Assembly (NCBI GenBank): GCA_016204335.1
Contig: JACQKU010000014.1
Coordinates: 4,988 to 68,987 of the forward strand
From: Candidatus Liptonbacteria bacterium
GTDB taxonomy: Bacteria > Patescibacteriota > Minisyncoccia > UBA6257 > 2-01-FULL-56-20
Length of the DNA: 64,000 bases
Direction of reading: 5' to 3'
Shown here: one piece after another, positions 19,108-62,048 of the stretch
How positions within the stretch are numbered: the stretch's first letter is position 1
Layout of the letters: each line of letters starts with the position of its first letter
Notes under the pieces: model-generated
Told to the model about the DNA's origin: nothing
Seen by the model: only the letters and a program-made list of their open reading frames with translations
Database searches by the model: none
Position numbers and translations under genes: made by a program

Positions 19108-19896
19108 ATGCAAAAACTCATTGTTGCTAATTGGAAGATGAATCCAATCTCTGCGAAAGAGGCGTTTTCGCTTGCGAAGAAGATTGATGCGGGAATTCCG
19201 AAGAAAAAAAATATCGAAGTTGTTATCGCGCCGCCGTTTCCATACCTTGAATGTATCAAGTATCAAGTATCAAGCATCAAGTTGGGAGCGCAGGATGTAT
19301 TTTGGGAAGACAAGGGAGCATACACGGGCGAAGTGTCGCCGACGATGCTCAAAAATCTCGGCGCAGAGTATGTGATTGTCGGCCACTCGGAGCGGCGCCG
19401 CCTTCTAAATGAAACCGACGAGATGGTTAACAAAAAAGTTCAGGCGTCGATGAAAGCCGGTTTGAAAGTTATTTTGTGCGTCGGCGAACCCAAACGAGCG
19501 ACAAGAGACATGCGACAAGGAATAAAGGAAGCGAAAAGTTTTGTAAAACGACAATTGCAGAGAGATTTAAAAGGAATTTCCAAATCCCATGTCGCTAATC
19601 CCATGTCGCTTATTGTAGCTTACGAGCCGATATGGGCAATCAGCGCAGGCGGCGCCGGAAAACCGGACAAGCCCGAAGACGCCGCCGAAATGATACGATT
19701 TATTAAGCAATTCCTCACTACTCACTACTCATTACTCGCTACTCCTGTCTTGTACGGCGGCTCCGTAAATTCCTCAAACGTCCGGAATTTCCTGCAGTAT
19801 GAAGAAGTGGATGGCGCGCTGGTCGGTAGCGCGAGTTTAAAGCATCAAGAATTTAAAAAGATAATCGCCGCAGTTTCATCGGTTGCGTATTATTAA
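19108..19896 (+). CDS. tpiA: triosephosphate isomerase
   Basis: IVANWKMN, GHSERR, YGGSVN motifs; carries two heptamer tandem-repeat tracts in-frame. Confidence 0.9.
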   Translation: MQKLIVANWKMNPISAKEAFSLAKKIDAGIPKKKNIEVVIAPPFPYLECIKYQVSSIKLGAQDVFWEDKGAYTGEVSPTMLKNLGAEYVIVGHSERRRLLNETDEMVNKKVQASMKAGLKVILCVGEPKRATRDMRQGIKEAKSFVKRQLQRDLKGISKSHVANPMSLIVAYEPIWAISAGGAGKPDKPEDAAEMIRFIKQFLTTHYSLLATPVLYGGSVNSSNVRNFLQYEEVDGALVGSASLKHQEFKKIIAAVSSVAYY

Positions 19897-22141
19897 AAAC
19901 ATGAAGCACAAAACAAAAATAATTTTAGGACTGACAGGATTAGGCATACTTTTCATTTCGCGCTTTGTTTTGGCGGATACGCTTATTAATCAAACCATTC
20001 ACGATACAAGGGCGCACGCAGGCATTCAATTTTCATTCAATAATTATCGTAGCGGACAAACATTCCTTGCTTCTTCCGCTTTTACCGTATCCGATATTCG
20101 ATACTGGATTAAATCCTCAAATGGGAGTGCTCAATCCGCAACATTCAATCTCGCCTTATACGATTTGGGTCTGACAAGCAATCCTTTAACTTCGCCCATC
20201 CTTGTTGCTTCCTCGACGAATACGGCGGTAAACGAAAGCGGTTTTACGGGGTCGGAATACACTTTTACGTTTTCACCTGCTTTTACTCTCACTGCCAATC
20301 ATTATTATTTTGTCGCGCAAGGGAGTTATGGCATCGGTATTAGCGCGGGCGCTTTAACCACTGCGGGTTCGGCAAGCGATGTGATTACCGGCCGGTATTA
20401 CAATAATGTTTCGTTTGGCGATAATTTTACCGGTCTCGATTTGGAAATTAACGATTCGTATTTTGTTATAAACGGAGGAGCTATTCTGCCTTCAATTACC
20501 GGCTTGCAGCAGTCCAAATCCGATGCTACAACCTCTATCGCCGAAGGCAATGCGACGACGGAAGATACGGTGGTATTCGGCGCGATGTTGCAATCGTCAT
20601 CGAGCGACCCATTGCGGCTGGAAGTGGAATATACGGCGAGCGAAACTTTTACGGGCATTGCCAACGCAACGACTACACCCGTTCCTCCCGGCAGTGTTGC
20701 AACCGCAACTGCAACCGGACTTCAGAACGGCAACTATCGGTGGCGCGCAAGGGCGGTGGATACGGCAACGAACGCCGCCTCCGACTGGCAGGAGTTCGGA
20801 ACGGCGGGCAATACGGATTTTGTCGTTAATAACTTAGGACAAAACGCGGCAGAGTTGGCGAAGCAACTTCTGAACTCCTCGTACCTTTTTGGCGGCAAGG
20901 GATGGGATTACGACGCAAATCAATTTATCTCCGCCAGTATGATCAAAAGCGGTTATACGTTTTGGAATCAATCATTGACAATGCCAGGTAAAGATTTCGG
21001 TTTAGGTGTGGATTGTTCTGGTCTTATCATGTGGGCGTTTAACCGGAGTGTCGATGCATTAAAGCCATTTGTGAATAATTTTGTGAAATATGAAGGGGCC
21101 AATGCACAATATATGAGTAATACGATACCAGTTGCTGAATCACAACTTAAGCCCGGAGATGTGATGTTTTTCGATAACGTTGACGCGAATGGTGATCCTG
21201 GCCAAGATGGTCATATCGACCATGTCGAGATGTATGTCGGGAGTAGTACTGGTGGTTTCGATGTGGTTAGCGCAGCTTCCAAAGCTCTCGGAGTTATTGG
21301 GCGATCCAAAGACATCCGAAAGCAACCACAAACTGGTTTTGTTGGTTTCAAGCTGGTCACCTTAGCAGCACCGTATGGCTTTTTGGCAAGCGCTTATTCA
21401 CCAGTTGGTCTTATAGTTAGCGACCCTGATGGATTTACGATTACGCCTATGACGGTTGTATCATCTAACGAAGAATTTCTACGAGAAATTCCTGGAGTGT
21501 TTTACTACTCGGAAATGGAAAAAGGAGCAGATGGCAATTCTATTAAACGTGTATACTCCCCGACGCTCAAAACCGGGGATTATACGATAAAAGTTGTGCC
21601 AGTTCTTGGAACTTCTCTTGTTGCAACATACACGCTCGATGTTACGATTGGCGGACAGACTACTGTTTTGGCAAACAGTGCAACTGTGAGACAGATACCG
21701 TCCCAGGGTTATGGTGTAACAGTGTCGACCAGCAGTAGTATAAGCGTTTTCGTTCCTGCCGCAATCGATATCAGGCCCAACGAAAGCCCGAATAATATTA
21801 ACCTCAATTCTCATGGAATATTGCCTGTTGCAATTTTCGGCTCAGCAACCCTGAACGTTAATAATATAGATTTCGCAACCGTGAGATTGTTGGGAGCCAC
21901 GATAAAATTAAAAGAAAATAAAAAACCCGTCGTAAAATACAAAGATATAAACAAAGACGGCTTTCCTGACGCAATAGTTCGTTTCCCAATCCGGGCGCTC
22001 AACCTTACGCCGTCAAGCACGCAGGCAAGTTTAATTGGCCAACTTGCAAACGGCACCGTAATCAAGGGTTCTGACTCCGTTCGTATTGTTTCCACCAGCG
22101 AACGCGGCGAAGATGAAGATAACGAAGGCAATGACGACTAA
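19883..22141 (+). CDS. large secreted NlpC/P60-family cell-wall hydrolase
   Basis: Signal/TM N-terminus; NlpC/P60 catalytic region GVDCSGLIMWAF...DGHIDHVEMYVG; acidic C-terminus; 752 aa. Confidence 0.7.
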   Translation: MRIIKNMKHKTKIILGLTGLGILFISRFVLADTLINQTIHDTRAHAGIQFSFNNYRSGQTFLASSAFTVSDIRYWIKSSNGSAQSATFNLALYDLGLTSNPLTSPILVASSTNTAVNESGFTGSEYTFTFSPAFTLTANHYYFVAQGSYGIGISAGALTTAGSASDVITGRYYNNVSFGDNFTGLDLEINDSYFVINGGAILPSITGLQQSKSDATTSIAEGNATTEDTVVFGAMLQSSSSDPLRLEVEYTASETFTGIANATTTPVPPGSVATATATGLQNGNYRWRARAVDTATNAASDWQEFGTAGNTDFVVNNLGQNAAELAKQLLNSSYLFGGKGWDYDANQFISASMIKSGYTFWNQSLTMPGKDFGLGVDCSGLIMWAFNRSVDALKPFVNNFVKYEGANAQYMSNTIPVAESQLKPGDVMFFDNVDANGDPGQDGHIDHVEMYVGSSTGGFDVVSAASKALGVIGRSKDIRKQPQTGFVGFKLVTLAAPYGFLASAYSPVGLIVSDPDGFTITPMTVVSSNEEFLREIPGVFYYSEMEKGADGNSIKRVYSPTLKTGDYTIKVVPVLGTSLVATYTLDVTIGGQTTVLANSATVRQIPSQGYGVTVSTSSSISVFVPAAIDIRPNESPNNINLNSHGILPVAIFGSATLNVNNIDFATVRLLGATIKLKENKKPVVKYKDINKDGFPDAIVRFPIRALNLTPSSTQASLIGQLANGTVIKGSDSVRIVSTSERGEDEDNEGNDD

Positions 22142-22739: not shown

Positions 22740-22844
22740 GAGCGTTTATGATAGAATAAAAACGGGCGATGAAGCCCGAAAGGCCGAAGAGTTCGTGAAA
22801 ATCATTTGCAGCGTTAATAATTAAAAAATTAATAAAATAAAAAA

Positions 22845-23603: not shown

Positions 23604-23623
23604 TAGGATTAAATTCTCAAACG

Positions 23624-26060: not shown

Positions 26061-26078
26061 CCGCTTTGTTTAGCCGTC

Positions 26079-26370: not shown

Positions 26371-27321
26371 ATGTTTAAAGAAAACATTCCGCTTGCCGGG
26401 CATACAGGTTATAAAATCGGCGGACCCGCGCGTTATTTTTTTGAAGCGCGCAATCTTGATGAATTGGAGAGCGCCGTCCGGGAAGCCCGTAAAAAAAATC
26501 TTTCGATATTCGTTTTGGGCGGCGGCACGAATCTTTTGGTTTCGGATGAAGGATTCGACGGCTTGGCGCTGAAGCCGGATTTTCATTTCCTGGAACAAGA
26601 CGGCAACGAAGTGAATGTCGGCGCCGGCATCCCAATTGCCGAATTACTTAATTACTTAATTACTCATTCTCTGACTGGTCTTGAATGGGCGGGCGGTTTG
26701 CCGGGAACCGTTGGCGGAGCGGTTCGCGGGAATGCGGGAGCGTTCGGCGGAGAAACAAAAGACCTTATAAAAAGCGTCCGGAGTTTTGATATCGAGAAAT
26801 TAAAAGAAGTTGAACGCGAGGCGCCGGCGTGTGACTTCGGCTATCGTTCAAGCGTTTTTAAAAAGAAAGGAGGAACGGAGATTATTATGTCCGCGGTATT
26901 TGCTCTGAAAAAAGGCGATACGGAAACCGTCCGAAAATCAATTCACGAAAAAATAAATTATCGTCGGGAAAGGCATCCGTTGGAGTATCCCAATATCGGA
27001 AGTATTTTTAAAAACGTCCCCTTAACGCGGATAAGCGCGGATAGTATAAGCCTAAATTTGCCTGGCAGTACGCGTAAATCAGCGGCCATACCGGTGAAGA
27101 CAGACCCTGTGCCCGTGGTGCCGGCGGCGTATCTGATTTCCGAGGCCGGGTTGAAGGGTGTCAGCTTCGGCGGGGCGATGGTTTCTCCCAAGCATCCCAA
27201 TTTCATCGTAAACGTGCTTGAAGCGAAGGCATCAGACGTGAAAACGTTAATTGAGCTCGTGAAAAACGAAGTCCACGGAAAATTCGGAATAATTTTGGAG
27301 GAAGAAGTGCAGAGAATCTGA
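26371..27321 (+). CDS. murB: UDP-N-acetylenolpyruvoylglucosamine reductase
   Basis: FAD-binding N-terminus GYKIGGPARYF, GGGTNLL; an AATTACTTAATTACTTAATTACTC 8-mer repeat is embedded in the coding sequence (~26640). Confidence 0.85.
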   Translation: MFKENIPLAGHTGYKIGGPARYFFEARNLDELESAVREARKKNLSIFVLGGGTNLLVSDEGFDGLALKPDFHFLEQDGNEVNVGAGIPIAELLNYLITHSLTGLEWAGGLPGTVGGAVRGNAGAFGGETKDLIKSVRSFDIEKLKEVEREAPACDFGYRSSVFKKKGGTEIIMSAVFALKKGDTETVRKSIHEKINYRRERHPLEYPNIGSIFKNVPLTRISADSISLNLPGSTRKSAAIPVKTDPVPVVPAAYLISEAGLKGVSFGGAMVSPKHPNFIVNVLEAKASDVKTLIELVKNEVHGKFGIILEEEVQRI

Positions 27322-28372: not shown

Positions 28373-31144
28373 ATGTCAATTTTAAAAACGATTTTCGGCG
28401 ATTCAAACGACCGATATATAAAATCTCTCAAGCCGGCAATCGATGAGATAAACGACCTTGAAGAAAAATTCAAGGAATTTTCCGATTCGGAACTGCGCGC
28501 TTTAACCGATGGATTCAAAAATCGCCTGAAAGAAGGCGAGACGCTTGACGACATATTGGTCGAGGCGTTTGCCGCGGTTCGGGAGGTTGCGAAGCGGACG
28601 CTTAGCCAGCGCCCGTTCGACGTTCAGTTAATGGGGGGCATTGTTCTTCATCGCGGCGCGGTTGCGGAAATGGTGACCGGCGAAGGAAAGACGCTCGCCG
28701 CCGTGGCGCCGGCGTATCTCAACGCGCTTGCCGGCGAAGGAGCGCATATCGTGACCGTGAATGAATATCTCGCACGTCGCGACGCCGTATGGATGGGCCA
28801 GATTTACCGCGCGCTCGGTTTGAGCGTTGCTTGTCTGGTGCCGAACGCCGCGTTCGCGTACGACCCTTCCTATACGCAGATTAACGCGGATGCAGACGCA
28901 GATAAACGCGGATATATCAGCGAAAATCAGCGTGAAAATTTGCGAGAATCCGCGCTGTTGGATCGAGAACGCGATTCAACGGGAGGTTTTTTGATACAAC
29001 AGGAATTTTTGCGGCCCGTTTCGAGGCGCGAAGCGTATTTGTCGGACATTGTCTACGGCACAAACCATGAATTCGGATTCGATTATCTTCGCGACAATCT
29101 CGCGTACTCGTTCGAAGACCAAGTCCAAAGCGCGCAGATTAACGCAGATATTGAAATTCACGCGGATCAACGCAGATATAATATCAGCGAAAATCCGCGT
29201 CTCGATCAGCGAAAATCCGCGCACTATTACGCCATCATCGACGAGGTTGACAGCATTCTTATCGATGAGGCAAGGACGCCGCTCATTATTTCCGCTCCGG
29301 ACGCGGAATCGAGCGAGTTCTATAAAACATTTTCAAGAATTGTGGAACGTCTCCAGCCGGAAGAGGACTACAAAGTCGATGAAAAATTCAGAACTGTGAG
29401 CATTAACGATTCCGGAATAGAAAAAGTGGAAAAAATAATCGGCATTCAGAATTTGTACGCTCCGGAAAATCTTCGCTTGGTTCATTTTCTCGAAGAGTGT
29501 CTGAAAGCGAAAACGCTTTTCCGGCGCGACAAGGACTATGTCGTGAAAAACGGAGAAGTGATTATCGTCGACGAGTTTACCGGCAGGATGTTGCAGGGAC
29601 GGAGATACAACGCCGGACTTCATCAGGCGATTGAGGCGAAAGAAGGCGTGTTCGTGAAAGAAGAATCGAGAACATACGCGAAAATTTCGATTCAGAATTA
29701 TTTCAGGATTTATAAAAAAATCGCGGGCATGACCGGCACCGCGCAAACGTCCGCCGAAGAGTTTCACAAAGTGTATAACCTTGAAGTCGTGAGCATTCCG
29801 ACGAACCGGAAGCTTGTTCGGGAGCAGCTGCCGGATGTGATTTATAAAACAGCGGGTGCGAAATGGGACGCGGTTGTGAAAGAAATCGAGGCGTTGCACC
29901 GGCGCGGCCAGCCGGTTTTGGTAGGCACAACTTCGATTGAAAAAAACGAGCGCGTGTCCGAAAAACTCCATCGCGCGGGAATACCTCACGAGGTTTTGAA
30001 CGCGAAGAATAACGAACACGAAGGCGCGATTATCGCGCAAGCGGGCCGGCCGAACGCCGTGACAGTCGCGACGAATATGGCGGGGCGCGGCGTTGACATT
30101 ATTTTGGGCGGGAATCCGCCTTCGCCCGGCGAAGCGGAGAAAATACGGGGATTGGGCGGATTGCATGTCATCGGCACCGAGCGGCATGAAGCGCGCCGGA
30201 TTGACAATCAGTTGCGAGGGAGGGCAGGCAGGCAAGGCGACCCGGGTTCGGCGCAATTTTTTCTGTCGCTTGAAGACGATTTGCTCCGGATTTTCGGCGG
30301 TGACAGAATTAAAAATATGATGGAGACATTCAACCTGCCGGAAGACCAGCCGATTCAGGCGAGTTTTCTTTCGAAAGTAATCGGCCAGGCGCAGGCGAAA
30401 GTGGAAGGATTCAATTTCGATTTGCGGAAACGGCTTCTCGAGTACGACGACGTGTTGAACAAACAGCGAACATCGATTTACAAGCGCAGGCAGGAAATTC
30501 TTGAAAGTATGAATCGCGAGGACGTGGTAAAATTCATTTTCGACGCATCAAGCGAGTATCTCAATGTCCTTGCGAGCGTAGCGAAGCAATCTCCGGAGAT
30601 CGCCGCGGCCGAAGGCCTCGCGATGACGAGGAAGGCTTTCGAGGAAGCGGGAATTGTGGACAAGAATCATCCCTACCCCGAAGACGATTCGCAGGAAAAT
30701 CTGATTGAATTGCTCCACGCGCGGAGCGGAGAAGCCGCGGCCGACCCGTTTTCGAGAAACCGGCTTTTAAGCATTCTCGACCTTCTCTGGATGAACCAGT
30801 TGGACGATTTGGAGGCATTGAGCGAGTCAGTGGGGCTTCGCGCGTACGGCCAAAAAGACCCGATTGTCGAATACCGGCACGAAGCCCGCCGTCTTTTCAA
30901 GGATTTCTGGAACAATTTCAACGGGTGGGTGTTTATGAACATTTTTAAATTAGCGACAAGCGACAAGCGACAAGCGACAAGTTCGCAAATTTCAACTCCT
31001 CCTGTATTGCATGTCGCTAATAGCCATGTCGCAAAAGTTGGCCGCAACGATCCCTGCCCGTGCGGAGCGGTGAACCCGGCAACTGACCAGATATACAAAT
31101 ATAAGAAATGCGGTTTAATCAATGCGTCATATCATAAAAAATAG
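28373..31144 (+). CDS. secA: preprotein translocase ATPase SecA with in-frame repeat insertions
   Basis: DEAD motor (MGGIVLHRGAVAEMVTGEGKT, DEVDSILIDEARTPLIIS), C-terminal zinc motif CPCGA. Two extra segments (~28860-28990 and ~29130-29230) come from related hairpin-forming DNA repeats. A (GCGACAA)x4 tract sits at 30953-30981. Confidence 0.95.
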   Translation: MSILKTIFGDSNDRYIKSLKPAIDEINDLEEKFKEFSDSELRALTDGFKNRLKEGETLDDILVEAFAAVREVAKRTLSQRPFDVQLMGGIVLHRGAVAEMVTGEGKTLAAVAPAYLNALAGEGAHIVTVNEYLARRDAVWMGQIYRALGLSVACLVPNAAFAYDPSYTQINADADADKRGYISENQRENLRESALLDRERDSTGGFLIQQEFLRPVSRREAYLSDIVYGTNHEFGFDYLRDNLAYSFEDQVQSAQINADIEIHADQRRYNISENPRLDQRKSAHYYAIIDEVDSILIDEARTPLIISAPDAESSEFYKTFSRIVERLQPEEDYKVDEKFRTVSINDSGIEKVEKIIGIQNLYAPENLRLVHFLEECLKAKTLFRRDKDYVVKNGEVIIVDEFTGRMLQGRRYNAGLHQAIEAKEGVFVKEESRTYAKISIQNYFRIYKKIAGMTGTAQTSAEEFHKVYNLEVVSIPTNRKLVREQLPDVIYKTAGAKWDAVVKEIEALHRRGQPVLVGTTSIEKNERVSEKLHRAGIPHEVLNAKNNEHEGAIIAQAGRPNAVTVATNMAGRGVDIILGGNPPSPGEAEKIRGLGGLHVIGTERHEARRIDNQLRGRAGRQGDPGSAQFFLSLEDDLLRIFGGDRIKNMMETFNLPEDQPIQASFLSKVIGQAQAKVEGFNFDLRKRLLEYDDVLNKQRTSIYKRRQEILESMNREDVVKFIFDASSEYLNVLASVAKQSPEIAAAEGLAMTRKAFEEAGIVDKNHPYPEDDSQENLIELLHARSGEAAADPFSRNRLLSILDLLWMNQLDDLEALSESVGLRAYGQKDPIVEYRHEARRLFKDFWNNFNGWVFMNIFKLATSDKRQATSSQISTPPVLHVANSHVAKVGRNDPCPCGAVNPATDQIYKYKKCGLINASYHKK

Positions 31145-31801: not shown

Positions 31802-32776
31802 ATGAAACTCCTCATCGCGACATATCCGGTGCGCGCTTCCCATCCGCATTTTTTCAAGCCGGCTCATTTGAAGCAGATAAAGAGCATAACCAAAAACAAA
31901 GTGGAAGTGCGCGCAACGGCGGATAAGAAAAAAGCTGAACTGTATGCCAGAGACGCGGACATTATTGCCGGACATCCCGGCGATATCCCGCGACTTGTCG
32001 GCATAAGAAATATCAAGTGGGTGCAATCGTTTTCCGCCGGAGTTGATAAACTGCTTACGCCGGAAGTGATACGGTCGCCGATTGTCGTTACCAATGTTTC
32101 CGGCATTCACGCGACGCCGATTGCGGAACATGTCATCGGTTTTATGCTCACGTTCACGCGCAGATTCCGCGAAACGTGGCTGAATCAGACAAAACACATC
32201 TGGAAGCCGGACCAAACGGTTACCGAATTGAGGGGCAAAACGGTTCTAATCGCTGGACTGGGGAATATCGGCGGGGAAGTCGCGCGGCTTTCGCATTGCT
32301 TTGGGGCGCGTGTGATTGCGGTTTCTCGAAATGCACGAGCAAAACCCCTGTATGTCGACCTTCTCAAAACCGAAAAATATCTGGATTCTTTGCTTCCCGA
32401 AGCGGATTTTGTATGCATTTGCCTTCCGCACACCAAAGATACTCATCATCTTTTTGATATGAGTAAATTCAAACATATGAAGCGAACCGCCATCCTCATC
32501 AATATCGGTAGAGGCGGAATTATAAATGAAAAAGAGCTTGTCGCGGCGTTGAAGAAAAAGATTATCGGAGGCGCGGCGCTCGACGTGACGGAAGAAGAAC
32601 CGCTGTCCCCACGAAGCCCGTTGTGGGATATGGAAAACGTAATCATAACCCCGCATCATTCCGGCATGTCCGAAAAATATATGGACCGCGCGATTGCTCT
32701 TTTTTGCGGCAATCTCAAAAATTTCCTTGCCGGAAAGCCGCTTAAGAACATAGTGAATAAAAAATTGGGATACTAA
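31802..32776 (+). CDS. D-isomer specific 2-hydroxyacid dehydrogenase (PGDH/glyoxylate reductase-like)
   Basis: NAD fold GLGNIGGEVARL, catalytic region RGGIINEKELVAALKKKIIGGAALDV, HH near C-terminus. Confidence 0.8.
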   Translation: MKLLIATYPVRASHPHFFKPAHLKQIKSITKNKVEVRATADKKKAELYARDADIIAGHPGDIPRLVGIRNIKWVQSFSAGVDKLLTPEVIRSPIVVTNVSGIHATPIAEHVIGFMLTFTRRFRETWLNQTKHIWKPDQTVTELRGKTVLIAGLGNIGGEVARLSHCFGARVIAVSRNARAKPLYVDLLKTEKYLDSLLPEADFVCICLPHTKDTHHLFDMSKFKHMKRTAILINIGRGGIINEKELVAALKKKIIGGAALDVTEEEPLSPRSPLWDMENVIITPHHSGMSEKYMDRAIALFCGNLKNFLAGKPLKNIVNKKLGY

Positions 32777-32778
32777 TG

Positions 32779-32863
32779 GCTACGAAATACGAAAAAGTAC
32801 GAATATACGAAATTGAAACAAACAAGATTTTCGTATATTCGTAAGAAATTCGTATTTCGTAGC
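32779..32863 (+). repeat. MITE-like hairpin family 2 (GCTACGAAATACGAA..TACGAATATACGAAA / TTTCGTATATTCGTA..TTCGTATTTCGTAGC)
   Basis: ~34-bp inverted arms; related copies at 37790-37852 and 63246-63332. Confidence 0.75.
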
Positions 32864-32877
32864 TGGGCGAAGCGACT

Positions 32878-36216: not shown

Positions 36217-36807
36217 ATGACAAAAGTATTTTTCAACTTCAATTCTGAAGTTGTGAAGATTTTAAAAAGAGGCGGCGCCGGCGTTATGCCTACCGATACA
36301 ATCTACGGAATCGTCGGTTCGGCGATGTCGCGGAAAACGGTTGCCCGGATTTACCGGCTTCGAAAGCGCCGGCCTGACAAGCCGATGATTATTTTGATAA
36401 ATTCGTTCAGCGTTTTGAAAATTTTCGGCATCGTGCCGGACGCACAGACAAAAAAGCTTTTGAAAAGATTCTGGCCCGGCAAAGTGAGCGTAATCTTAAG
36501 AGTCAAGAGTCATGAGTCAAAAATCAAGTTAAAATATCTTCATCGTGGGACGAATTCGCTTGCATTTCGTTTGCCTAAACCCTATTGGCTAAGAAAACTA
36601 TTGGCTAAGACGGGTCCGCTTGTCGCCCCGAGCGCGAATCTTGAAGGAAAAACTCCCGCTACGACGATAAAAGAGGCGCAAAAATATTTCGGCGCTAAAG
36701 CCGATTTTTACGTTGATGCGGGCAAGCTCATCGGCGTTCCATCCGCGATTGTCGCGTTCCGAAGCGGCAAAGCCCTTTTTTTACGGAAAGGCGCAAATGG
36801 AAAATAG
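36217..36807 (+). CDS. tsaC: L-threonylcarbamoyladenylate synthase TsaC/YrdC
   Basis: GGAGVMPTDTIYGI YrdC motif; 196 aa; contains (GAGTCAA)-type heptamer tract at ~36497-36527. Confidence 0.8.
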   Translation: MTKVFFNFNSEVVKILKRGGAGVMPTDTIYGIVGSAMSRKTVARIYRLRKRRPDKPMIILINSFSVLKIFGIVPDAQTKKLLKRFWPGKVSVILRVKSHESKIKLKYLHRGTNSLAFRLPKPYWLRKLLAKTGPLVAPSANLEGKTPATTIKEAQKYFGAKADFYVDAGKLIGVPSAIVAFRSGKALFLRKGANGK

Positions 36808-37858: not shown

Positions 37859-38983
37859 ATGAACGGCACTGACTTCAAATCAAAAAATCCCACGATACTC
37901 GTTATTTTCGGAGCCACGGGGGATTTGACGAGCCGGAAGCTCATGCCGGCGCTTTTTCATCTTTACCGGAAGAAACTTTTACCGCCGCTGTTTCAGGTTG
38001 TTGGGTTTTCGCGGCAGGATTTGTCCGACGCGGAGTTCCAATCGAGAGTGAAAAAAACGATTGGCCGAAGCAAAAAAAATGGCGCCACGGTGGAAGTCGT
38101 CGAATCGTTTTCCAAACTTTTCATATACTCGAAAGGATTTTTCGAAAAAAAGAAGGGATACAAAGATTTGGCTGAACTGCTCGGATACCGCGATAACGAA
38201 TGGAGGACTTGCGCGAACAAACTTTTTTATCTCGCGGTGCCGCCGCAATATTACAAGGGCATTCTGAAAAATCTGACTGCTTCCGGACTGACCGAACCGT
38301 GCAGTCCCGAAGAGGGATGGACGCGGGTAATTGTCGAAAAACCGTTCGGCAGAAATCTCAAAACCGCAGAAGAGCTCGACGCCCTTTTGGGCAAACTCTT
38401 TAAAGAAGAGCAGATTTACCGCATCGACCATTATCTCGGCAAGGAAACGGTTCAAAACATTCTCGCGTTCAGGTTTTCGAATTATTTTCTCGAGCCGGCG
38501 TGGGATAAACATTCTATCGAGGATATCAGAATTCGCCTGTGGGAAACCGGCGGCGTCGAGGGCCGCGGCGGTTTTTACGATACGGCAGGGGCGCTTCGCG
38601 ACGTGGGGCAGAATCATTTACTTCAGCTTTTGGCGCTTTTCACCATGGAAAATCCGGGCAAGTTTGACGCCGAGTCAATCCGCCGCAGGCGCGCCGAGAC
38701 GCTCAACTGTCTTAAGATTTTTACGAAAAAAGACGTGGAGCGTTTTGCGGTCCGGGCGCAATATGAAGGATACAGGAATGAGAAAGACGTAAAATCAGAT
38801 TCAAATACGGAAACATATTTCCGGATTACCGCTTTTTTGGACACGCCGCGTTTTGAAGGAGTACCGCTATATCTTGAAAGCGGGAAGATGATGCCTGAAT
38901 CGAAAGCCGAAGTTGTCGTCACGTTCAAGCATCCGTTGCCGTGTCTGTGTCCCGTCGAGGGACAAGGGACAAGGGACAAGTAA
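37859..38983 (+). pseudogene. zwf: glucose-6-phosphate dehydrogenase, N-terminal 374 aa, truncated by frameshift in a (GGGACAA)x3 tract
   Basis: ILVIFGATGDLTSRKLMPALFHLY NADP motif; reading frame ends inside the heptamer tract 38958-38980; C-terminal G6PD homology continues in another frame (38941 ORF). Confidence 0.75.
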
Positions 38984-40347: not shown

Positions 40348-40398
40348 ATTCAAAAATCAAATATCAAAATGCAAAATGACAATGCAAAATTAAAAAAT
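40346..40398 (+). repeat. MITE family 1 left-arm-only copy (AAATTCAAAAATCAAATATCAAAATGCAAAATGACAATGCAAAATTAAAAAATG)
   Basis: Overlaps and supplies the N-terminal codons of ORF 40369. Confidence 0.6.
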
Positions 40399-41665: not shown

Positions 41666-42061
41666 ATGCCGATTCTCAAAAAACCAAAGATTTTTCATTG
41701 GACCAGCCATAGCCGGGCAAAAATGCGTTTTTACGGATTGTCGGAAGCGCGATTGAGGCGCGTAATTCGTTCGCCACATCGGATTGAAGAGGGAATCGCG
41801 CCGGACACGGTCGCGATGATGCAGTCGGCCGGCAGCGCGAAGCATCCTTATGAAATCTGGCTGATGATTCAAGAGACGTGGATAAACGCAGACCTCACGC
41901 GGAATAACGCGGAAAAAAGAACACGTCAGCGTAAGTCAGCGTTAAGTCCGCGTAAGTCAGCGGTTATAAAAGTCATCAGCGCGTGGCGGTATCCGGGCAA
42001 AACAAAGCCGGGACAATCCCTGCCCGCGGAGATTTTGAGAGAAATGAGAAATTTTTTGTAG
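41666..42061 (+). CDS. DUF4258-like protein with 10-11-nt tandem repeat insertion
   Basis: HSRAKMRFYGLSEARLRRVI N-terminal motif; GTAAGTCAGCG-type repeats at ~41925-41960 encode RQRKSALSPRKSAV. Confidence 0.4.
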   Translation: MPILKKPKIFHWTSHSRAKMRFYGLSEARLRRVIRSPHRIEEGIAPDTVAMMQSAGSAKHPYEIWLMIQETWINADLTRNNAEKRTRQRKSALSPRKSAVIKVISAWRYPGKTKPGQSLPAEILREMRNFL

Positions 42062-46538: not shown

Positions 46539-47573
46539 ATGAAATTATCCATCGGAATCGTCGGTTTGCCTAACGTCGGCAAGTCCACGCTTTTTAAAAT
46601 TCTCACCAGGCAGGAGGTGCATATCGCGAATTATCCATTCGCGACCATTGACCCGAACGTGGGCGTCGTTGAGGTTCCGGACGAACGGCTCGAAAAACTT
46701 TCCACGATGTCGAAGTCGAAAAAGATTATTCCGGCAGTCGTGGAGTTTTACGATATCGCTGGACTGGTAAAAGGCGCGAATACGGGCGAAGGGCTTGGCA
46801 ATCAGTTCCTCGCGCACATCCGTGAAACGCAGGCGATAGTTGTCGTTATCAGATTATTCGGCAATTCGGAAATCGTGCATGTCGAGGGAACGGTTGACGC
46901 GGCGCGCGATTTGGAAATCATCAATACCGAACTTATTTTGAGAGATTTGGAAACAGTGGAAAAGTGCATTCCAAAAGCCGAGTCGGAAGCTCGAACCGGA
47001 AGTAAAGAAGCGGCGCAATTTTTATCCGTTTTGCGCGAAGCAAAATCGGCGCTTGAAAAAGGCGACCTTTTGTCATTAGAAAAACATTCTCATATTCTGC
47101 AGAATGTTGGAATGTCGGGACTAAGTTTATTAACCGCAAAAAAGCAACTCTATCTTTTGAATGGAACAGAGGAAGACGCAAACGAGGCGCTAATAGGAAA
47201 AATAAAATCGCTCGGCGCGGATTATCTCGCTATGGACCTTGCTTCGGCGACCGAGATATCCGGCCTCATCAAAAAGTCATACGAAATTCTCGACCTCATC
47301 AGTTTTCTGACCACCGGCGAGGACGAGACGCGCGCGTGGACAATCAAAAAGGGAACGAAAGCCCCCGAAGCGGCCGGCGTGATTCATACGGATTTCGAGA
47401 AAAAATTCATCCGCGCGGAAGTTGTTAACTGGCAAAAATTACTCGAAGCCGCCCATTCGGCAGGCTCAGGGCAAGGTGGCTGGGTTCAGGCAAAGCAGAA
47501 AGGGTTAATCCGGCTGGAAGGGAAAGATTATGTAGTCCAGGACGGGGACGTAGTGGTAATCAGGCACGGGTGA
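46539..47573 (+). CDS. ychF: ribosome-binding ATPase YchF
   Basis: MKLSIGIVGLPNVGKSTLF, TGS C-terminus ..GKDYVVQDGDVVVIRHG; contains a degenerate copy of the arsR-flanking palindrome at ~47085-47115. Confidence 0.9.
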   Translation: MKLSIGIVGLPNVGKSTLFKILTRQEVHIANYPFATIDPNVGVVEVPDERLEKLSTMSKSKKIIPAVVEFYDIAGLVKGANTGEGLGNQFLAHIRETQAIVVVIRLFGNSEIVHVEGTVDAARDLEIINTELILRDLETVEKCIPKAESEARTGSKEAAQFLSVLREAKSALEKGDLLSLEKHSHILQNVGMSGLSLLTAKKQLYLLNGTEEDANEALIGKIKSLGADYLAMDLASATEISGLIKKSYEILDLISFLTTGEDETRAWTIKKGTKAPEAAGVIHTDFEKKFIRAEVVNWQKLLEAAHSAGSGQGGWVQAKQKGLIRLEGKDYVVQDGDVVVIRHG

Positions 47574-47701: not shown

Positions 47702-48457
47702 ATGGCCCGTATGGATTCAGGTAGGGGGATAGTGTTGGTTGGCGTACTTAAAAGAAAACGCGACCTCACGATTCTCCTGCGTGAGCGCTGGTATCGTATT
47801 CCTCGCGCATGGTTTCCGAAAAGGAAATTTCAATATCTCGCGTTTTATCAACCTGCTTTGTTCGGCCGGCAAGGGAAGCGGATTCAGTATTATGCGCGCG
47901 TGATGCGTTGCGAGACACATAAGCGGCGCGGATTGTTGCCGCGCGAATCCGTGCATCCGAACGCCGACGCGGAGTATGCGCAGATCCATGTCGCCGATAT
48001 CAAAAAACTGCCAAAAGCGATTATAAATCGTCGGCCGGGACAGCCACGACGCGTGTCTTTCGGCTTCACCACGTTCACGTGTTTGAAAACGGCGAGAAAT
48101 ATTTTGGAATTATACCGCGTCGCGCCGACCGAGGAGATGATGGGAAAGGCGCTTGTGGAATCCGGCATTCGGGCGATTCCGCAGCACTATGTTTCGAGCG
48201 GCTTGAAGCGAAGGAAAAAACTATATTGTCTTGATTTTGCGATATTGTGCAAATGGGGCGCGATCGCGATCGAGTGCGACAATCGAAAAGCTCATGTCGG
48301 GGCGCGACAGCGCGCAAAGGACGGGACGAAAGACGCTTTTTTGCGCCGGCGCGGCTGGACCGTGGTCCGGCTTAAGGAAGAAGAAATCGTGCTTCGCCTC
48401 GAGGATTGCATTACTCACATACGTAAAACAATCCAAGCCCTCGGCGGCCAATCCTAA
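47702..48457 (+). CDS. DUF559 (Vsr-like PD-(D/E)xK) domain protein with unknown N-terminal domain
   Basis: C-terminal LDFAILCKWGAIAIECDNRKAH..RRRGWTVVRL. Confidence 0.5.
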   Translation: MARMDSGRGIVLVGVLKRKRDLTILLRERWYRIPRAWFPKRKFQYLAFYQPALFGRQGKRIQYYARVMRCETHKRRGLLPRESVHPNADAEYAQIHVADIKKLPKAIINRRPGQPRRVSFGFTTFTCLKTARNILELYRVAPTEEMMGKALVESGIRAIPQHYVSSGLKRRKKLYCLDFAILCKWGAIAIECDNRKAHVGARQRAKDGTKDAFLRRRGWTVVRLKEEEIVLRLEDCITHIRKTIQALGGQS

Positions 48458-48499
48458 TTACAACATTCTGATATTCTGCAGAATATTAGAATGTTGTAA
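48456..48499 (+). promoter_or_regulatory. palindromic operator-like site TTACAACATTCTGATATTCTGCAGAATATTAGAATGTTGTAA upstream of arsR
   Basis: Near-perfect 36-44-bp palindrome; second copy at 48789-48824 overlapping the arsR stop. Confidence 0.5.
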
Positions 48500-48532: not shown

Positions 48533-48799
48533 ATGAAAACCTCAAAGCAACTTGAACGGTATTTTAAGGGTGCGGCCAATCATTGGCGTATTTCCGTTTT
48601 GTTTCTTATTGAGAAAAACGAAGGAATTACTGTTCAGGGAATTACTTCAGCACTCGGCGGAAATTTCAAAACTATCTCCCAACATACGCGAGCATTGGTG
48701 CAGGCTGGCCTTTTGAATAAAAAGTATCGCGGCCAGGAAGTTATGCATTCGCTCTCTCCTTATGGAAAATCATTCGTCCGTTTCATGAAAACATTCTAA
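48533..48799 (+). CDS. ArsR/SmtB family winged-helix transcriptional regulator
   Basis: ISVLFLIEKNEGITVQGITSALGGNFKTISQHTRALVQAGLL. Confidence 0.6.
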   Translation: MKTSKQLERYFKGAANHWRISVLFLIEKNEGITVQGITSALGGNFKTISQHTRALVQAGLLNKKYRGQEVMHSLSPYGKSFVRFMKTF

Positions 48800-48824
48800 T
48801 ATTCTGCAGAATATCAGAATGTTT
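48789..48824 (+). promoter_or_regulatory. second copy of palindrome AAACATTCTAATATTCTGCAGAATATCAGAATGTTT
   Basis: See 48456-48499. Confidence 0.5.
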
Positions 48825-48856
48825 TATGTAAAGTGGCTTTTAGTTTAAGGATTTTT

Positions 48857-52919: not shown

Positions 52920-52949
52920 CCGGCCGCTATGCTATAGCATAGCGGCCGG
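52920..52949 (+). repeat. 30-bp perfect palindrome CCGGCCGCTATGCTATAGCATAGCGGCCGG
   Basis: Core GCTATGCTATAGCATAGC shared with 53044-53079 and 57643-57666. Confidence 0.8.
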
Positions 52950-53043: not shown

Positions 53044-53079
53044 CCTTCTGCCGCTATGCTATAGCATAGCGGCAGAAGG
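53044..53079 (+). repeat. 36-bp perfect palindrome CCTTCTGCCGCTATGCTATAGCATAGCGGCAGAAGG
   Basis: Same core, 125 bp from the previous copy. Confidence 0.8.
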
Positions 53080-57397: not shown

Positions 57398-58156
57398 ATG
57401 AGAGCAAGTTTCAAATCCTTAAGCACGCGGTATAAATTTTCAAATCAACGTTATGGTGCTCGTTATAGTGTGGGGATAGATGAGGTGGGGCGGGGGGCTT
57501 TGGCCGGCCCGGTGACCGTTGCCGTGGCATGCATCCCGGACGATTTGCGTATCGAGAATCAGGGCTGGGGAAATTTGAAGGATTCAAAAAAACTTTCTCC
57601 GGCGCAAAGAAAGAAATGGTTTGCTTATTTCAGAAACCAGCCCGCGCTATGCTATAGCATAGCGCGCGTGTACCCGCGAGGCGTAGAGCGGTTGAATATT
57701 TCAAACGCCGCGAACCGAGCGGCTACGAAAGCGTGTAATAGGTTATTAAGGAAACGGGAAATTAAGAAATTCAGGATTTTTTTGGACGGCGGGCTTTATC
57801 TTGAAGATAAGAGCGAAAAAGTGCGAATACTTATGCGAAAGGGCGCGAAAAACTTTCGCAAAGATTCGCGTGTAAATTCGCGACATTTCGCTTCTACAAT
57901 TATCAAGGGCGACGAGAAAATCACCGCCATTGCAATCGCTTCCATCATCGCGAAAGTCGACAGGGACGGATATATGGAGCGGCTGTCGAAAAAACATCCA
58001 CGATACGGTTTCGAGATTCACAAGGGCTATGGGACAAAGAAACATTTTAGCGCGATCCGCCGGTACGGCCCCAGCAAAGCGCACAGGTTGACGTTTCTCT
58101 TAGATTTTCTTGAAAATCGTAAGCGGAAGCGAGACGATTTTTCTAGAAAATCTTAG
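57398..58156 (+). CDS. rnhB: ribonuclease HII
   Basis: GIDEVGRGALAGPV; contains perfect palindrome CGCGCTATGCTATAGCATAGCGCG at 57643-57666 within the coding sequence. Confidence 0.85.
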   Translation: MRASFKSLSTRYKFSNQRYGARYSVGIDEVGRGALAGPVTVAVACIPDDLRIENQGWGNLKDSKKLSPAQRKKWFAYFRNQPALCYSIARVYPRGVERLNISNAANRAATKACNRLLRKREIKKFRIFLDGGLYLEDKSEKVRILMRKGAKNFRKDSRVNSRHFASTIIKGDEKITAIAIASIIAKVDRDGYMERLSKKHPRYGFEIHKGYGTKKHFSAIRRYGPSKAHRLTFLLDFLENRKRKRDDFSRKS

Positions 58157-58298
58157 ACCCCGCCTCTTCTTTTATGTTGTTGGCTCTAGACTTGCATTGT
58201 CCGCTAAATTCTGTAAAATGGAATTATTAAATTAAAGCTCAGAAGAGGCGGGGTGCTCAATTTTGCAACCAATCGCTTCGCTCTTGGGCAAAATTGGC

Positions 58299-58448
58299 AT
58301 GGGAGGCGTACCAGTAAAACATCATAGCAAGGGAAAAGTCGGCAGGCGGAGGTCGCATATGGCTTTGAAAAAAGAGCGGGTTTTTGTTTGCAAGAACTGC
58401 GGCGGGCCGAAACTGCCGCACCGGATTTGCGGGCAGTGCAGGAAGTAA
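58299..58448 (+). CDS. rpmF: 50S ribosomal protein L32
   Basis: GGVPVKHHSKGKVGRRRSH..CKNCGGPKLPHRICGQC; ORF-track start 58263 uses a non-ATG start; coordinates may be off by 1. Confidence 0.7.
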   Translation: MGGVPVKHHSKGKVGRRRSHMALKKERVFVCKNCGGPKLPHRICGQCRK

Positions 58449-58598
58449 ATTCAAAAATCAAATATCAAAGTGCAAAATGAAAGCGTAAAATGAAAAAAGA
58501 ATTCAAGCACATTCTTTTTTCCGCCCGAGGCGGATCCGCCTTCGGCGGAGAATTTTGATTCGTCATTTTGATTTTTGACTTTTGCATTTTGTATTTTA
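58447..58598 (+). repeat. MITE family 1 degenerate copy with double CCGCC/GGCGG hairpin loop
   Basis: AAATTCAAAAATCAAATATCAAAGTGCAAAATGAAAGCG.. / ..TTTTGATTTTTGACTTTTGCATTTTGTATTTT; loop TCCGCCCGAGGCGGATCCGCCTTCGGCGGAG resembles 10362-10395. Confidence 0.6.
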
Positions 58599-58601
58599 TA
58601 T

Positions 58602-59030: not shown

Positions 59031-59036
59031 TTAATT

Positions 59037-59735
59037 ATGAATAACGAAGCAGGCAATCTTGAAAATCTCGAAACCGTCATCGGCTTCAATTTCAAAAATA
59101 AAGATTTTCTCAAAGAGGCGCTGACGCACCGGTCGTATTTGAACGAAAATCCCGGCTGGCCGTTTTCCCACAACGAGCGTCTGGAATATCTCGGCGACGC
59201 GGTGCTTGAGCTTGTGGTGAGCGAAGCGCTTTTCAAAAAATTTCCCAAAGCGCCCGAGGGGCAGATGACAGTGCTTCGCGCCGCGCTCGTGAATTACCAA
59301 ATGCTCGGCAGCGTTGCCGCGGCTCTCCGCCTTGACGATTTTATTTTTATGTCGCGGGGGGAGCGCGCTGACACCTCAAAAGCGCGGGAAGTGATTCTCG
59401 CGAACGCCATTGAGTCGCTCATCGGCGCGATTTATCTTGATGCCGGACTTGAAGCCGTAGAGGGGTTTGTCGAACGATTTATTTTCACGCGTCTTCCGGA
59501 AATCCTCGAAACCAAAAGCTATAAGGACTCCAAAAGCGAACTTCAGGAAATAATCCAGGAAAAACTGAAAATAACGCCGACCTACGGAGTTCTTGGAGAA
59601 AGCGGGCCGGCGCACCAGCGGACATTCCGCATAGGGGTTTATTTCGGGAATGAATTGATTGCCGAAGGCGCGGGCGCTTCTAAGCAGGAAGCCGAAGTCG
59701 AAGCGGCGAAAAAAGCGCTGGAGAAGCGTAAATAA
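59037..59735 (+). CDS. rnc: ribonuclease III
   Basis: HRSYLNENPGWPFSHNERLEYLGDAVLELVVSEALF signature and C-terminal dsRBD. Confidence 0.9.
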   Translation: MNNEAGNLENLETVIGFNFKNKDFLKEALTHRSYLNENPGWPFSHNERLEYLGDAVLELVVSEALFKKFPKAPEGQMTVLRAALVNYQMLGSVAAALRLDDFIFMSRGERADTSKAREVILANAIESLIGAIYLDAGLEAVEGFVERFIFTRLPEILETKSYKDSKSELQEIIQEKLKITPTYGVLGESGPAHQRTFRIGVYFGNELIAEGAGASKQEAEVEAAKKALEKRK

Positions 59736-59857
59736 AATCAAAATTCAAACTGCAAACATCAAAATGAAAATGTAAAATGCAAAAAACCCTTAAAAATTCT
59801 TTTTTAATTTTTTCTTTTTCATTTTGCATTTTGAGATTTGATTTTTGAATTTTCCAT
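59735..59857 (+). repeat. MITE family 1 copy 4 (near-identical to 15881-16001)
   Basis: AAAATCAAAATTCAAACTGCAAACATCAAAATGAAAATGTAAAATGCAAAAAA .. TTTTTCATTTTGCATTTTGAGATTTGATTTTTGAATTTT, ending 2 nt before the smc ATG. Confidence 0.8.
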
Positions 59858-59858
59858 C

Positions 59859-62048
59859 ATGCCCAATCTTCTTAAACGCCTCGAACTAAACGGGTTCAAA
59901 TCGTTCGCGCAAAAGACAGTTCTCGAATTTCCGACCGGCATCACGGCGATTGTCGGTCCCAACGGTTCGGGAAAATCTAACGTCATAGACGCGATTCGCT
60001 GGCTGTTGGGCGAGCGCGAAGCGAAAAATTTGCGCGGCGCAAAAGCGGAGGACCTGATTTTCGCGGGCACTCCGAAAAAGGCGCGGCTTGGCCAGGCGCA
60101 CGCATCGCTTCATTTCGAAAACGAGAAGAATTTTTTTCCGCTTGAGTTCGCCGAAATTTCCGTTTCCCGGCAGGTTGACCGCGACGGCTCGAATAAGTTT
60201 TTTTTGAATAAGGCGGAAATCCGGCTCAAGGACCTGATAGATTTTTTCGCGAAAGTCAGGCTGGGAACAAAGGGTTTGGTGGTTATAACGCAGGGCAACA
60301 GCGACATTTTTGTCCAGGCCTCTCCAGCCGGAAGGCGCGAAATGCTCGAGGAAATGCTCGGCTTACGCGAATATCAGCTGAAAAAAAATTCATCCGAACG
60401 CCGCCTGAAAAACACGGAAATCAATCTTGAGAAAGTTGACGCCTTGATAAAGGAAATTCTGCCGCATCTTCGTTCGCTCAAACGGCAGACGGGCCGGTGG
60501 GAAAAACGGGAGGCGCTTGCGGACGAACTTCATAATCTTGAAAATCAATTTTTCGGGCATCAATGGCGGGAGCTTGGAGATAAGATTTCCGGAATTGAAA
60601 AAGAGATTGGCGTCCATCGGGAAGAGTTGAAAATTTTTGAAAAAGAAAAAGACGCCGCGGATGAATATCTCAAAAAAGTCGAGGCGAGCAGGCCGGCGGA
60701 ACGCGAGGAAATGGCGGGCATCAAGAAAGAACTGAACGAGGTTCTTGAAAAAAGAAGCCAATTTCAGAAAGAACTCGGCCGTTTGGAAGCCCGGCTCGAA
60801 ATATACCAGAAAAAGCCGGGCGATGTTTCGGTTCCGGCGACGAAACTCGTCGAATTTATAGAAAAGGCGAGAACGAGACTCGAAAAAACCCTTGACGCGG
60901 AAATCGAATCACTGCGCGATGTTATACGCGAACTTATGCGTGAAATCGACGTTCTTTTTTCCGCCGGAGAAAAAGAGGATATGGCACTGCCGCAGGACCT
61001 TAAATCGGGCCTCGCGGAACTCGAGAAAAATTTGGCGGGTTTGGACGGGGAAATTTCGGCGCTCCGGCTGAAAGAGGAAACGCTCGGAAAAAACCAGGAG
61101 GACTTTTATCGCTTGTTCAAAAAAGCCGCGGCTGGAATCGAGGCGGCGAAAGACAAAATCGAGAAATGGGAAAATAAGAATCAGGAGCGGCTTTTTGAAA
61201 AGGAACGTCTGGAACTCCGTTTATCGGAGTTGAAGCGCCAGATAGAACAAGCGGGCCGGAAGCCGGAAGAGTTTAATAAGGTTATGCATTCGGAGATTCC
61301 GCAATCGGAATCGTTTTCCTCGTTTGAGAAACGGATTTTTAAGTTGCGCGGCGACTTGGCGGGCATCGGCGAAGTTGACGAAGCGCTTCTTAAAGAAGCG
61401 AGGGAAACCGAAGAACGGCACAATTTTCTCGAACGGCAGTTCGAGGATTTGGGAAAAGCAAAAAACGACCTTAGGCAGTTGATAGAAGAATTAAGCGATA
61501 AAATAAGGAACGAGTTTATGGAAGCTCTAGGAAAAATTAACGAAGAGTTCGACACGTTTTTTCGGCTGATGTTCGACGGAGGCCGCGCGAAACTCAAGAT
61601 AGTGGGTCAAGGGTCAAGTATCAAGGGTCAAGTAAAGGCGAAAGGCGCCGAAGAAAATAAAGAGTCGAATGTTGCGGCGGAAGAAGAGGCGGAGAAAGAA
61701 GAAAAAGAAGTAGAGGAGGGAATAGAAATAAGCGTGAATTTGCCGCGAAAAAAAATACATTCTCTGGAAACGCTTTCCGGCGGCGAGAGGAGTTTGGTCG
61801 GCATCGCGGCATTGTTCGCCCTGATTTCGGTCAGCCCGCCGCCGTTTCTGGTTCTTGACGAAGTGGACGCCGCGCTCGATTCCCGAAATTCCCGGCGGTT
61901 CGGCGAGATGCTCAAAGAATTTTCGAAAAAAACCCAGTTTATCGTCGTCACGCACAACCGCGCCGTAATGGAAACGGCAAACGTGTTATACGGAGTGACG
62001 CTCAACGAAGACGGCACTTCAAAAATTTTGTCGTTGAAATTGGAATAA
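59859..62048 (+). CDS. smc: chromosome segregation SMC-like ATPase (short, ~729 aa)
   Basis: Walker A GPNGSGKSN, long coiled coil, signature LSGGERSL, Walker B FLVLDEVDAALD; rnc-smc synteny; (GGGTCAA)-type heptamer tract at 61605-61633. Confidence 0.75.
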   Translation: MPNLLKRLELNGFKSFAQKTVLEFPTGITAIVGPNGSGKSNVIDAIRWLLGEREAKNLRGAKAEDLIFAGTPKKARLGQAHASLHFENEKNFFPLEFAEISVSRQVDRDGSNKFFLNKAEIRLKDLIDFFAKVRLGTKGLVVITQGNSDIFVQASPAGRREMLEEMLGLREYQLKKNSSERRLKNTEINLEKVDALIKEILPHLRSLKRQTGRWEKREALADELHNLENQFFGHQWRELGDKISGIEKEIGVHREELKIFEKEKDAADEYLKKVEASRPAEREEMAGIKKELNEVLEKRSQFQKELGRLEARLEIYQKKPGDVSVPATKLVEFIEKARTRLEKTLDAEIESLRDVIRELMREIDVLFSAGEKEDMALPQDLKSGLAELEKNLAGLDGEISALRLKEETLGKNQEDFYRLFKKAAAGIEAAKDKIEKWENKNQERLFEKERLELRLSELKRQIEQAGRKPEEFNKVMHSEIPQSESFSSFEKRIFKLRGDLAGIGEVDEALLKEARETEERHNFLERQFEDLGKAKNDLRQLIEELSDKIRNEFMEALGKINEEFDTFFRLMFDGGRAKLKIVGQGSSIKGQVKAKGAEENKESNVAAEEEAEKEEKEVEEGIEISVNLPRKKIHSLETLSGGERSLVGIAALFALISVSPPPFLVLDEVDAALDSRNSRRFGEMLKEFSKKTQFIVVTHNRAVMETANVLYGVTLNEDGTSKILSLKLE

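Follow-up and report, generated by a model that had tools for sequence, protein, structure and literature searches.

Heterocystous cyanobacteria carry short tandemly repeated repetitive (STRR) sequences with the heptanucleotide units CCCCAGT, TTGGTCA and CAACAGT. The small dispersed repeats of Nostoc attributed to Elhai et al. 2008 reportedly measure 21-27 nucleotides (nt) and are seemingly mobile without a known enzyme, in genomes rich in heptamer arrays. More generally, an excess of heptanucleotide repeats occurs in many bacteria and has been ascribed by hypothesis to slippage, according to the summary of Mrazek et al. 2007 given in PMC4692102. The GGGNATC heptamers of Xanthomonas and Nostoc show a preference for four units, and the preference of bacteria for 7-nt units was still called uncharacterised in 2015 (both PMC4692102). 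Selfish repeats of another kind are inserted in frame in core genes of Rickettsia (PMC10969869). Here we describe tandem arrays, mostly of 7-nt units, that lie within housekeeping genes and between genes in a 64,000-nt stretch of a Candidatus Liptonbacteria genome (contig JACQKU010000014.1, positions 4,988 to 68,987), referred to below as the window. The coding tracts, together with the octamer and 10-mer arrays considered with them, are as follows:

19253-19282, + strand: tpiA tract 1, GTATCAA in 4.3 copies; amino acids 49-59, a helix end and the loop before beta-3
19497-19519, + strand: tpiA tract 2, GCGACAA-type in 3.3 copies (GCGACAA GAGACAT GCGACAA G); amino acids 130-138, the loop after beta-5
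19583-19610, + strand: tpiA tract 3, two copies of the 14-mer AATCCCATGTCGCT; amino acids 159-168, the loop before beta-6
19714-19744, + strand: tpiA tract 4, CTCACTA in 4.4 copies; amino acids 203-213, a helix end and the loop before beta-7
26642-26664, + strand: murB octamer tract, AATTACTT in 2.9 copies
30952-30981, + strand: secA tract, GCGACAA in 4.3 copies, in the variable linker that joins the scaffold domain to the C-terminal zinc-binding tail
36498-36528, + strand: tsaC tract, GAGTCAA-type in 4.4 copies
38958-38980, + strand: zwf tract, GGGACAA in 3.3 copies, the point of a frameshift
41925-41962: 10-mer tract, 3.7 copies, in a gene of 131 amino acids
61604-61634, + strand: smc tract, GGGTCAA-type in 4.1 copies (GGGTCAA GGGTCAA GTATCAA GGGTCAA GTA), in the variable linker after FFRLMFDGGRAKLKI
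5547-5585, + strand: intergenic octamer array, AATTAAGT in 4.9 copies, with related arrays at 5084-5110 and 10093-10123

Tracts were detected with Tandem Repeats Finder (TRF) and by direct reading of the letters, and positions in triosephosphate isomerase (TIM), the tpiA product, were taken from an AlphaFold model (predicted local distance difference test score 82.9). All tracts described in an earlier note on this DNA were found at the coordinates it gave, and a check of their genomic context by TRF placed the heptamer tracts in open reading frames (ORFs) and added two in tpiA that had not been listed (tracts 2 and 3). The tracts for which that note gave copy numbers exist, but the tsaC tract has 4.4 copies and not three, and the -CAA end described as common to the units belongs to five of the six coding heptamers, CTCACTA being the exception. 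Pfam backs the names tpiA, murB, secA, tsaC (Sua5/YrdC), zwf and smc, but the assignment of the 131-amino-acid gene to DUF4258 was not reproduced, as the gene had no Pfam match at E<=1e-3. The murB octamer, thought to be related to the intergenic octamers, is a rotated reverse complement of the intergenic AATTAAGT unit. Reading frames are kept at the tracts except in zwf, as had been observed: ORFs 37859-38983 and 38941-40347 switch frame at the tract.

The arrays exceed what composition alone would give. Counting non-redundant TRF arrays with a score of at least 40, the window has seven arrays of period 7 compared with 0.00 per third-order Markov shuffle, three of period 8 (0.01 per shuffle), three of period 14 (0.36) and three of period 16 (0.21). 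Three heptamers and an octamer form exact arrays with at least three copies, whereas 100 simulations produced no such array, and a 50 kb E. coli control contained zero arrays at these periods. The coding heptamer tracts have 3.3-4.4 copies that match at 79-100% (TRF); with at least three head-to-tail copies of a 5-11-nt unit and an excess over composition-matched random sequence, these arrays have the properties of long simple-sequence repeats. Their units are also related to one another. The form G-N-N-W-C-A-A fits five of the six coding heptamers and likewise the dispersed intergenic arrays, and the five tracts of this form end in ...CAAG followed by T (G in tpiA tract 2). A pattern of four consecutive CAA N4 units with at most one mismatch has 20 matches in the window, grouped into about 11 places that include the dispersed intergenic arrays in both orientations, where 0.53 would be expected. 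The smc and tsaC tracts and tpiA tract 2 have in addition a 14-nt super-period, which would point to block duplication.

The 7-nt periodicity of the tracts means that they are not the ordinary codon runs that the earlier note had allowed for, and the units are related across genes. Selection for heptads at the protein level was considered and rejected because the DNA repeats exactly at synonymous positions, and because the tract peptides belong to those few that can be encoded by heptamer arrays (11,256 of about 2.6e10 possible 8-mers), to which shuffled proteins gave 0 matches.

Compared with 7-nt simple-sequence repeats and the cyanobacterial STRR sequences, the arrays are alike in being head-to-tail, far above chance, genome-wide, denser in intergenic DNA, apparently variable in length between relatives and proposed to arise by slippage. 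They differ in host, as they belong to Patescibacteria (here Candidatus Liptonbacteria), and in units (GTATCAA, GCGACAA, GAGTCAA, GGGACAA, GGGTCAA and CTCACTA); about half are genic, they recur at the same loops, and arrays of 8- and 10-11-nt units occur alongside. The small dispersed repeats of Nostoc are unlike them in not being tandem arrays and in being cyanobacterial. With the GGGNATC / GGGGA(C/T)T quadruplex heptamers (Rehm et al. 2015, PMC4692102) they share the 7-nt period, the roughly four units, the frequent inverted pairs and the lack of a link to virulence genes. In contrast to those heptamers, only GGGACAA and GGGTCAA contain runs of three Gs and neither tract has four, with three GGG runs each in zwf (as assembled) and smc and none in the other units; a G-quadruplex was rejected for this paucity of G runs. 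Full-text searches listed no report linking heptamer, tandem or simple-sequence repeats to Patescibacteria, Parcubacteria or the candidate phyla radiation, nor did related searches on heptamer repeats in cyanobacteria and prokaryotes, and the host lineage, the recurrence at the same coding loops and the scale appear to be undescribed, although the kind of repeat itself is known. The earlier remark that no described mechanism sows such repeats into essential genes was too strong, since both a heptamer excess with a polymerase-slippage hypothesis (PMC4692102) and in-frame selfish repeats in Rickettsia core genes (PMC10969869) have been published.

We scanned 1.29 Mb from 80 other Paceibacterota genomes with TRF, which yielded 30 arrays of period 7 and 34 of period 14 versus four each for periods 6 and 8. 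The TIM, truncated Zwf and SMC-like proteins of the window are 100% identical to MAG proteins of Candidatus Liptonbacteria. The relatives identified through SecA all belong to this group (Patescibacteria, class Paceibacterota) and are at most 69% identical, with closer ones (87%) coming solely from a search with zwf. By our own count about half of the 7-, 8- and 14-nt arrays in relatives lie within open frames of at least 150 amino acids, including 41 of 87 period-7 arrays, whose median copy number is 4.4. In a protein-level scan of 120 orthologues each of TIM, SMC and Zwf, a perfect heptamer-coded 8-mer was found in 39 TIM sequences, representing 32 unit classes at the same four loop sites, while shuffled sequences gave none; the counts for SMC and Zwf were four and zero. 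Across TIM orthologues the same sites carry different units, and tract-free orthologues have shorter loops. This diversity of units argues for a process that would act on local sequence and not for a few mobile sequences. Equivalent tracts are present in metagenome-assembled genomes (MAGs) produced in dozens of studies that are unrelated, as are the assemblers used.

Recurrence at a site is not confined to TIM. The secA linker carries different heptamer tracts in three other genomes, and the smc linker of orthologues reads QVSSIKYQ, ETRDKRQE or ELRIKNN. The murB type of tract occurs at the same site, in the same helix, in L021, L022, L033 and L055; common to five genomes in all, the murB octamer looks old. 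With the tsaC tract, the protein is 4-5 amino acids longer there than three of four orthologues with which it was compared; the close relatives L086 and L089 do not have the tract.

Within the window, arrays of period 7, 8, 10, 11, 14 and 16 are distributed as 13 coding, 13 intergenic and three at gene edges, which makes them about six-fold denser in intergenic DNA. The genic ones lie only in loops, linkers and helix ends. The earlier note had spoken of repeats sown into essential genes, but nothing in this distribution points to a targeting of such genes; they are probably hit simply because about 86% of the window is coding (by a crude ORF map) and its content is mostly core genes. The excess of these periods extends to intergenic DNA, beyond the reach of selection on the reading frame. 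Taken together, these counts show a probable mutational habit shared by the whole lineage, class Paceibacterota.

The zwf tract is the one place where the number of units differs between assemblies. The tract has 3.3 units in the window, and one added unit (23 to 30 nt) was predicted by computation, before contig L083 was seen, to restore a single ORF. Corrected in this way, window 37859-40347 becomes one fused zwf-gnd ORF of 831 amino acids, with glucose-6-phosphate and 6-phosphogluconate dehydrogenase domains, and this fusion is intact in many relatives at about 775-840 amino acids. Further sequencing runs belonging to the same study provided independent assemblies in the form of Logan contigs. 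An independent Logan contig, L083, recorded in two samples, has at least 4.3 zwf units (6124-6153, corresponding to window 38958 onwards) and stops inside the tract after four units, before the downstream junction. An in-frame zwf allele would be consistent with L083. The stop of the contig may separately mark a branch in the assembly graph, that is, mixed copy numbers in the reads. Judged from sequence, the zwf 'pseudogene' is a putative whole-unit length variant, or else an assembly collapse. There are signs of the hypermutability claimed for the tracts in zwf, which appears to differ by whole units (3.3 versus at least 4.3), but not in tpiA and tsaC, whose tracts are identical in all independent contigs.

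Comparison of orthologues for insertions likewise gave a divided answer, as the zwf and tsaC tracts add residues but tpiA site 1 and murB show no change in length. In most of the 120 orthologues, the loop into which the zwf tract is inserted has 0-4 residues. Relatives with 87%-identical Zwf have neither the zwf nor the tsaC tract, and one of them has at the zwf site a two-unit proto-repeat, ATCAACA GACAACA, which favours local amplification as the probable origin. As a separate observation (P0121-P0123 versus P0019), the Zwf of a relative is 87% identical to that of the window and its putative TIM 61%, a gap that could reflect very uneven rates or the transfer of one gene.

We regard it as moderately probable that the tracts result from a slippage-type mutational bias toward arrays of about four units of 7-8 nt (also 10-11 nt), filtered by selection. 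Strands realigning out of register during replication or repair would make the arrays and keep them homogeneous. The bias would operate genome-wide in Paceibacterota, with selection purging most of its products and arrays accumulating in intergenic spacers. In a gene, an array would survive only if the protein tolerates altered residues, as in surface loops, disordered linkers and helix ends, if the net change in length preserves the frame, and if the unit contains no stop codon in any frame. A heptamer array would pass through all three frames every 21 nt, so it would encode a cyclic peptide of seven amino acids in any phase. The arrays would remain unstable, and the loss of one unit in zwf would have shifted the frame here. 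We infer slippage as the generator, and likewise the reason for a period of 7-8 nt and about four units. The slippage account covers the higher density of arrays between genes, their confinement to loops within genes, the variety of their units, the zwf proto-repeat and the zwf variant, and it agrees with the proposal made for heptamer excess elsewhere (PMC4692102).

Several observations weigh against slippage. Single steps of plus or minus 7 nt shift the frame, and building up or homogenising an array in an essential gene would seem to require lethal intermediates. The tpiA site 1 has the same length as its orthologues and the murB octamer brings no change in length, which fits conversion-like overwriting better than simple expansion. 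Identical units are shared between genomes in 34 pairs versus 5.2 expected, and the units within this genome are related through their CAA phase. A second, apparently copied class of repeats coexists with the heptamers at 90-93% identity across genes of distant genomes. Copy number varies at one tract alone, tpiA and tsaC being invariant in independent contigs, and the slippage account gives no reason why periods of 7-8 nt, or arrays of about four units, are favoured.

We think a copy-paste explanation rather unlikely: tiny sequences of about 30 nt, mobile or gene-converting, would spread between arrays, whether in one genome or across genomes, and be tolerated in frame, much like Rickettsia palindromic elements or the small dispersed repeats of cyanobacteria. 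In 2000 trials the number of shared pairs of identical units never exceeded 17, compared with the 34 observed. Among TIM and SMC orthologues the peptides VSSIKYQ, TRDKRQ and LRIKNN turn up repeatedly, and VSSIKYQ and LRIKNY occur in other ORFs of the relatives' loci as well. The smc tract holds one GTATCAA, the tpiA unit, and CAA-phase units are found in coding and in dispersed intergenic arrays. The intergenic arrays of the window include these:

15877-16004, unstranded: CAA-phase heptamer element, an NNNNCAA array followed by a TTGNNNN array, 94% identical to 59732-59857
32770-32870, unstranded: intergenic hairpin with arms of TACGAAA(T) 8-mers, with an inverted relative at 63247-63337
40342-40402, + strand: intergenic NNNNCAA array of family D3
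58443-58597, unstranded: NNNNCAA array, GC-rich terminator-like hairpin and TTGNNNN array
59730-59857, unstranded: second heptamer-armed inverted element

A 126-nt element with heptamer arms is thus present twice in the window at 94% identity, as copying would predict. Solo heptamer tracts, however, have neither common flanks nor defined ends, TIM orthologues alone present 32 unit classes, a relative has a local proto-repeat at the zwf site, and no transposase is linked to the tracts. A shared unit is moreover weak evidence of common origin. The idea that GTATCAA is a special, widely mobile unit was tried and dropped: it occurs in more than 120 metagenome contigs, but control heptamers are as common in viral contigs (six for GTATCAA versus three and 11 for the controls), and its abundance therefore carries little weight.

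Copying is better seen in a palindromic element, 65-95 nt long and composed of units of 10-11 nt, which has four in-frame copies in three genes of the window:

27022-27086, + strand: degenerate copy in murB, in the same loop as the copies of L042 and L033
28871-28959, + strand: first copy in secA, in frame, peptide TQINAD...ISENQRENLRESALL
29130-29224, + strand: second copy in secA, in frame, about 29 amino acids longer than orthologues
41877-41966, + strand: copy in the 131-amino-acid gene, about 26 amino acids longer than six of seven orthologues; includes the 10-mer tract

The element is always read in one frame (QINAD...ISENQRENLRESAL), its model also matches its own reverse complement, and it folds weakly better than shuffles (z = -1.3 to -1.6). 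Between the murB copy of L042 (9239-9325) and the first secA copy of the window (28871-28959), DNA identity is 90-93%, even though SecA of the two genomes is only 54% identical. Such near-identical copies in distant genomes indicate probable copying and not vertical descent, and the copying of this element keeps a copy-paste origin of the heptamers alive. In L060, an insertion of about 140 amino acids lies in secA (about 10462-10883) at the site of the first secA element and ends ...SSQRESALLD; from its sequence, it is presumably a nuclease-like domain. Rickettsia palindromic elements (RPEs, PMC10969869) are similarly found in frame in unrelated core genes at positions that the fold tolerates. 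The 65-95-nt QINAD...RESAL element resembles an RPE-like in-frame miniature inverted-repeat transposable element in being palindromic, in having a peptide conserved in one frame, and in its several copies, near-identical in different genes. RPEs themselves are about 150 bp and not made of tandem units. The heptamer tracts lack this likeness, as they have no inverted partner except for tpiA tracts 2 and 3 and their flanks are dissimilar; the solo tracts are about 30 nt, non-palindromic, without defined ends and of many unit classes.

A further reading, also improbable in our view and offered tentatively, is that Paceibacterota may have a dedicated or at least specific process that writes short periodic arrays, with units of 7-11 nt and some four of them in each arm, into DNA. 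The arrays would be copied from site to site and from genome to genome, with inverted-arm versions, including the tpiA pair, serving as structural elements in RNA or DNA. The writer may be the ligation of flaps left unprocessed, should a flap nuclease be lacking, or a small templated or mobile-element system. If this were true, the tracts would form a class of genetic element that is new, very small and in frame, and that reshapes loops in core proteins throughout a major bacterial radiation.

It is less likely still that the tracts are selected cis-elements, whose coding copies would be functional and not merely tolerated. In favour of function, tpiA tracts 2 and 3 form the left and right arms of an inverted pair, ATGTCGC complementing GCGACAT, with an RNA fold z of -3.3, and the arms are kept in L093 at about 80% nucleotide identity versus 60% for the whole gene; common to a genome with a TIM that is 60% identical, the complementary arms look old. 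Intergenic inverted pairs also fold strongly as DNA (z = -10 for the hairpin at 32770-32870 and -3.9 for the element at 59730-59857), and the arrays keep to a regular CAA register. Six of the eight coding tracts with heptamer or octamer units, however, have no inverted partner, and none was found within 700 nt of any coding tract except in the tpiA 2/3 pair. Four of the five solo heptamer tracts fold like shuffles (z from -0.7 to +0.5), that of smc being marginal at -2.3. Units vary freely at the same site between orthologues, close relatives do without the tsaC and zwf tracts, and an Rfam search of the window returned four tRNAs and no other RNA family.

We consider it very unlikely that the tracts are contingency loci, that is, phase-variation switches turning genes such as zwf on and off. 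They resemble such loci in having a unit not divisible by three within an ORF, where gain or loss switches the frame, and zwf does differ by whole units between assemblies, one state being out of frame and the other predicted in frame. Contingency loci, however, typically have units of 1-5 nt and are located close to the 5' ends of genes for surface structures, restriction or virulence. The tracts here have mostly 7-nt units and lie mid-gene or near the C-terminus in tpiA, secA, tsaC, zwf, smc and murB, genes of core metabolism, secretion and chromosome maintenance and not of surface structures or restriction. The other tracts compared, those of tpiA and tsaC, are invariant across independent contigs. 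The position in loops also speaks against switches, and cells with tpiA, secA or smc turned off should not survive.

An assembly or sequencing artefact, suggested by the differing zwf copy number and by the Logan contig that ends inside the tract, has hardly any chance of explaining the tracts and was rejected for them as a class, because in contigs from other runs the four tpiA tracts are all 100% identical and the encoded TsaC is the same, and equivalents occur in MAGs of many studies.

A few other features of the window were recorded. GC skew is positive over most of it, the cumulative skew climbs almost throughout, and the + strand holds most genes. A 42-nt, operator-like near-palindrome (ACAACATTCTGATATTCTGCAGAATATTAGAATGTTGT) has four copies at 47078-47119, 48457-48498, 48785-48826 and 63798-63839, with a related site in L093 at 20533-20565, and a 24-nt palindrome (GCCGCTATGCTATAGCATAGCGGC) has three, at 52923-52946, 53050-53073 and 57643-57666. 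Between 10172 and 12085, the 3' part of a tRNA-Glu (10203-10247) recurs incompletely at 10335 and 11565, and segments of 66 and 46 nt repeat about 1230 nt apart (92% and 98% identity); a duplication, or else an insertion at the tRNA, could account for these repeats.

One would expect essential genes to be purged of repeats with a unit length not divisible by three, since each slip is a frameshift, yet such repeats persist here in core enzymes, and a third of the TIM orthologues examined carry a heptamer tract in a lineage that is large, streamlined and uncultured. In MAGs, the tracts create apparent pseudogenes, as in zwf. Because the genes can be aligned, gains, losses and homogenisation of arrays can be dated on the protein tree, which could help to explain the 7-nt preference. 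For these bacteria, the tracts are an unrecognised source of loop diversity in their proteins.

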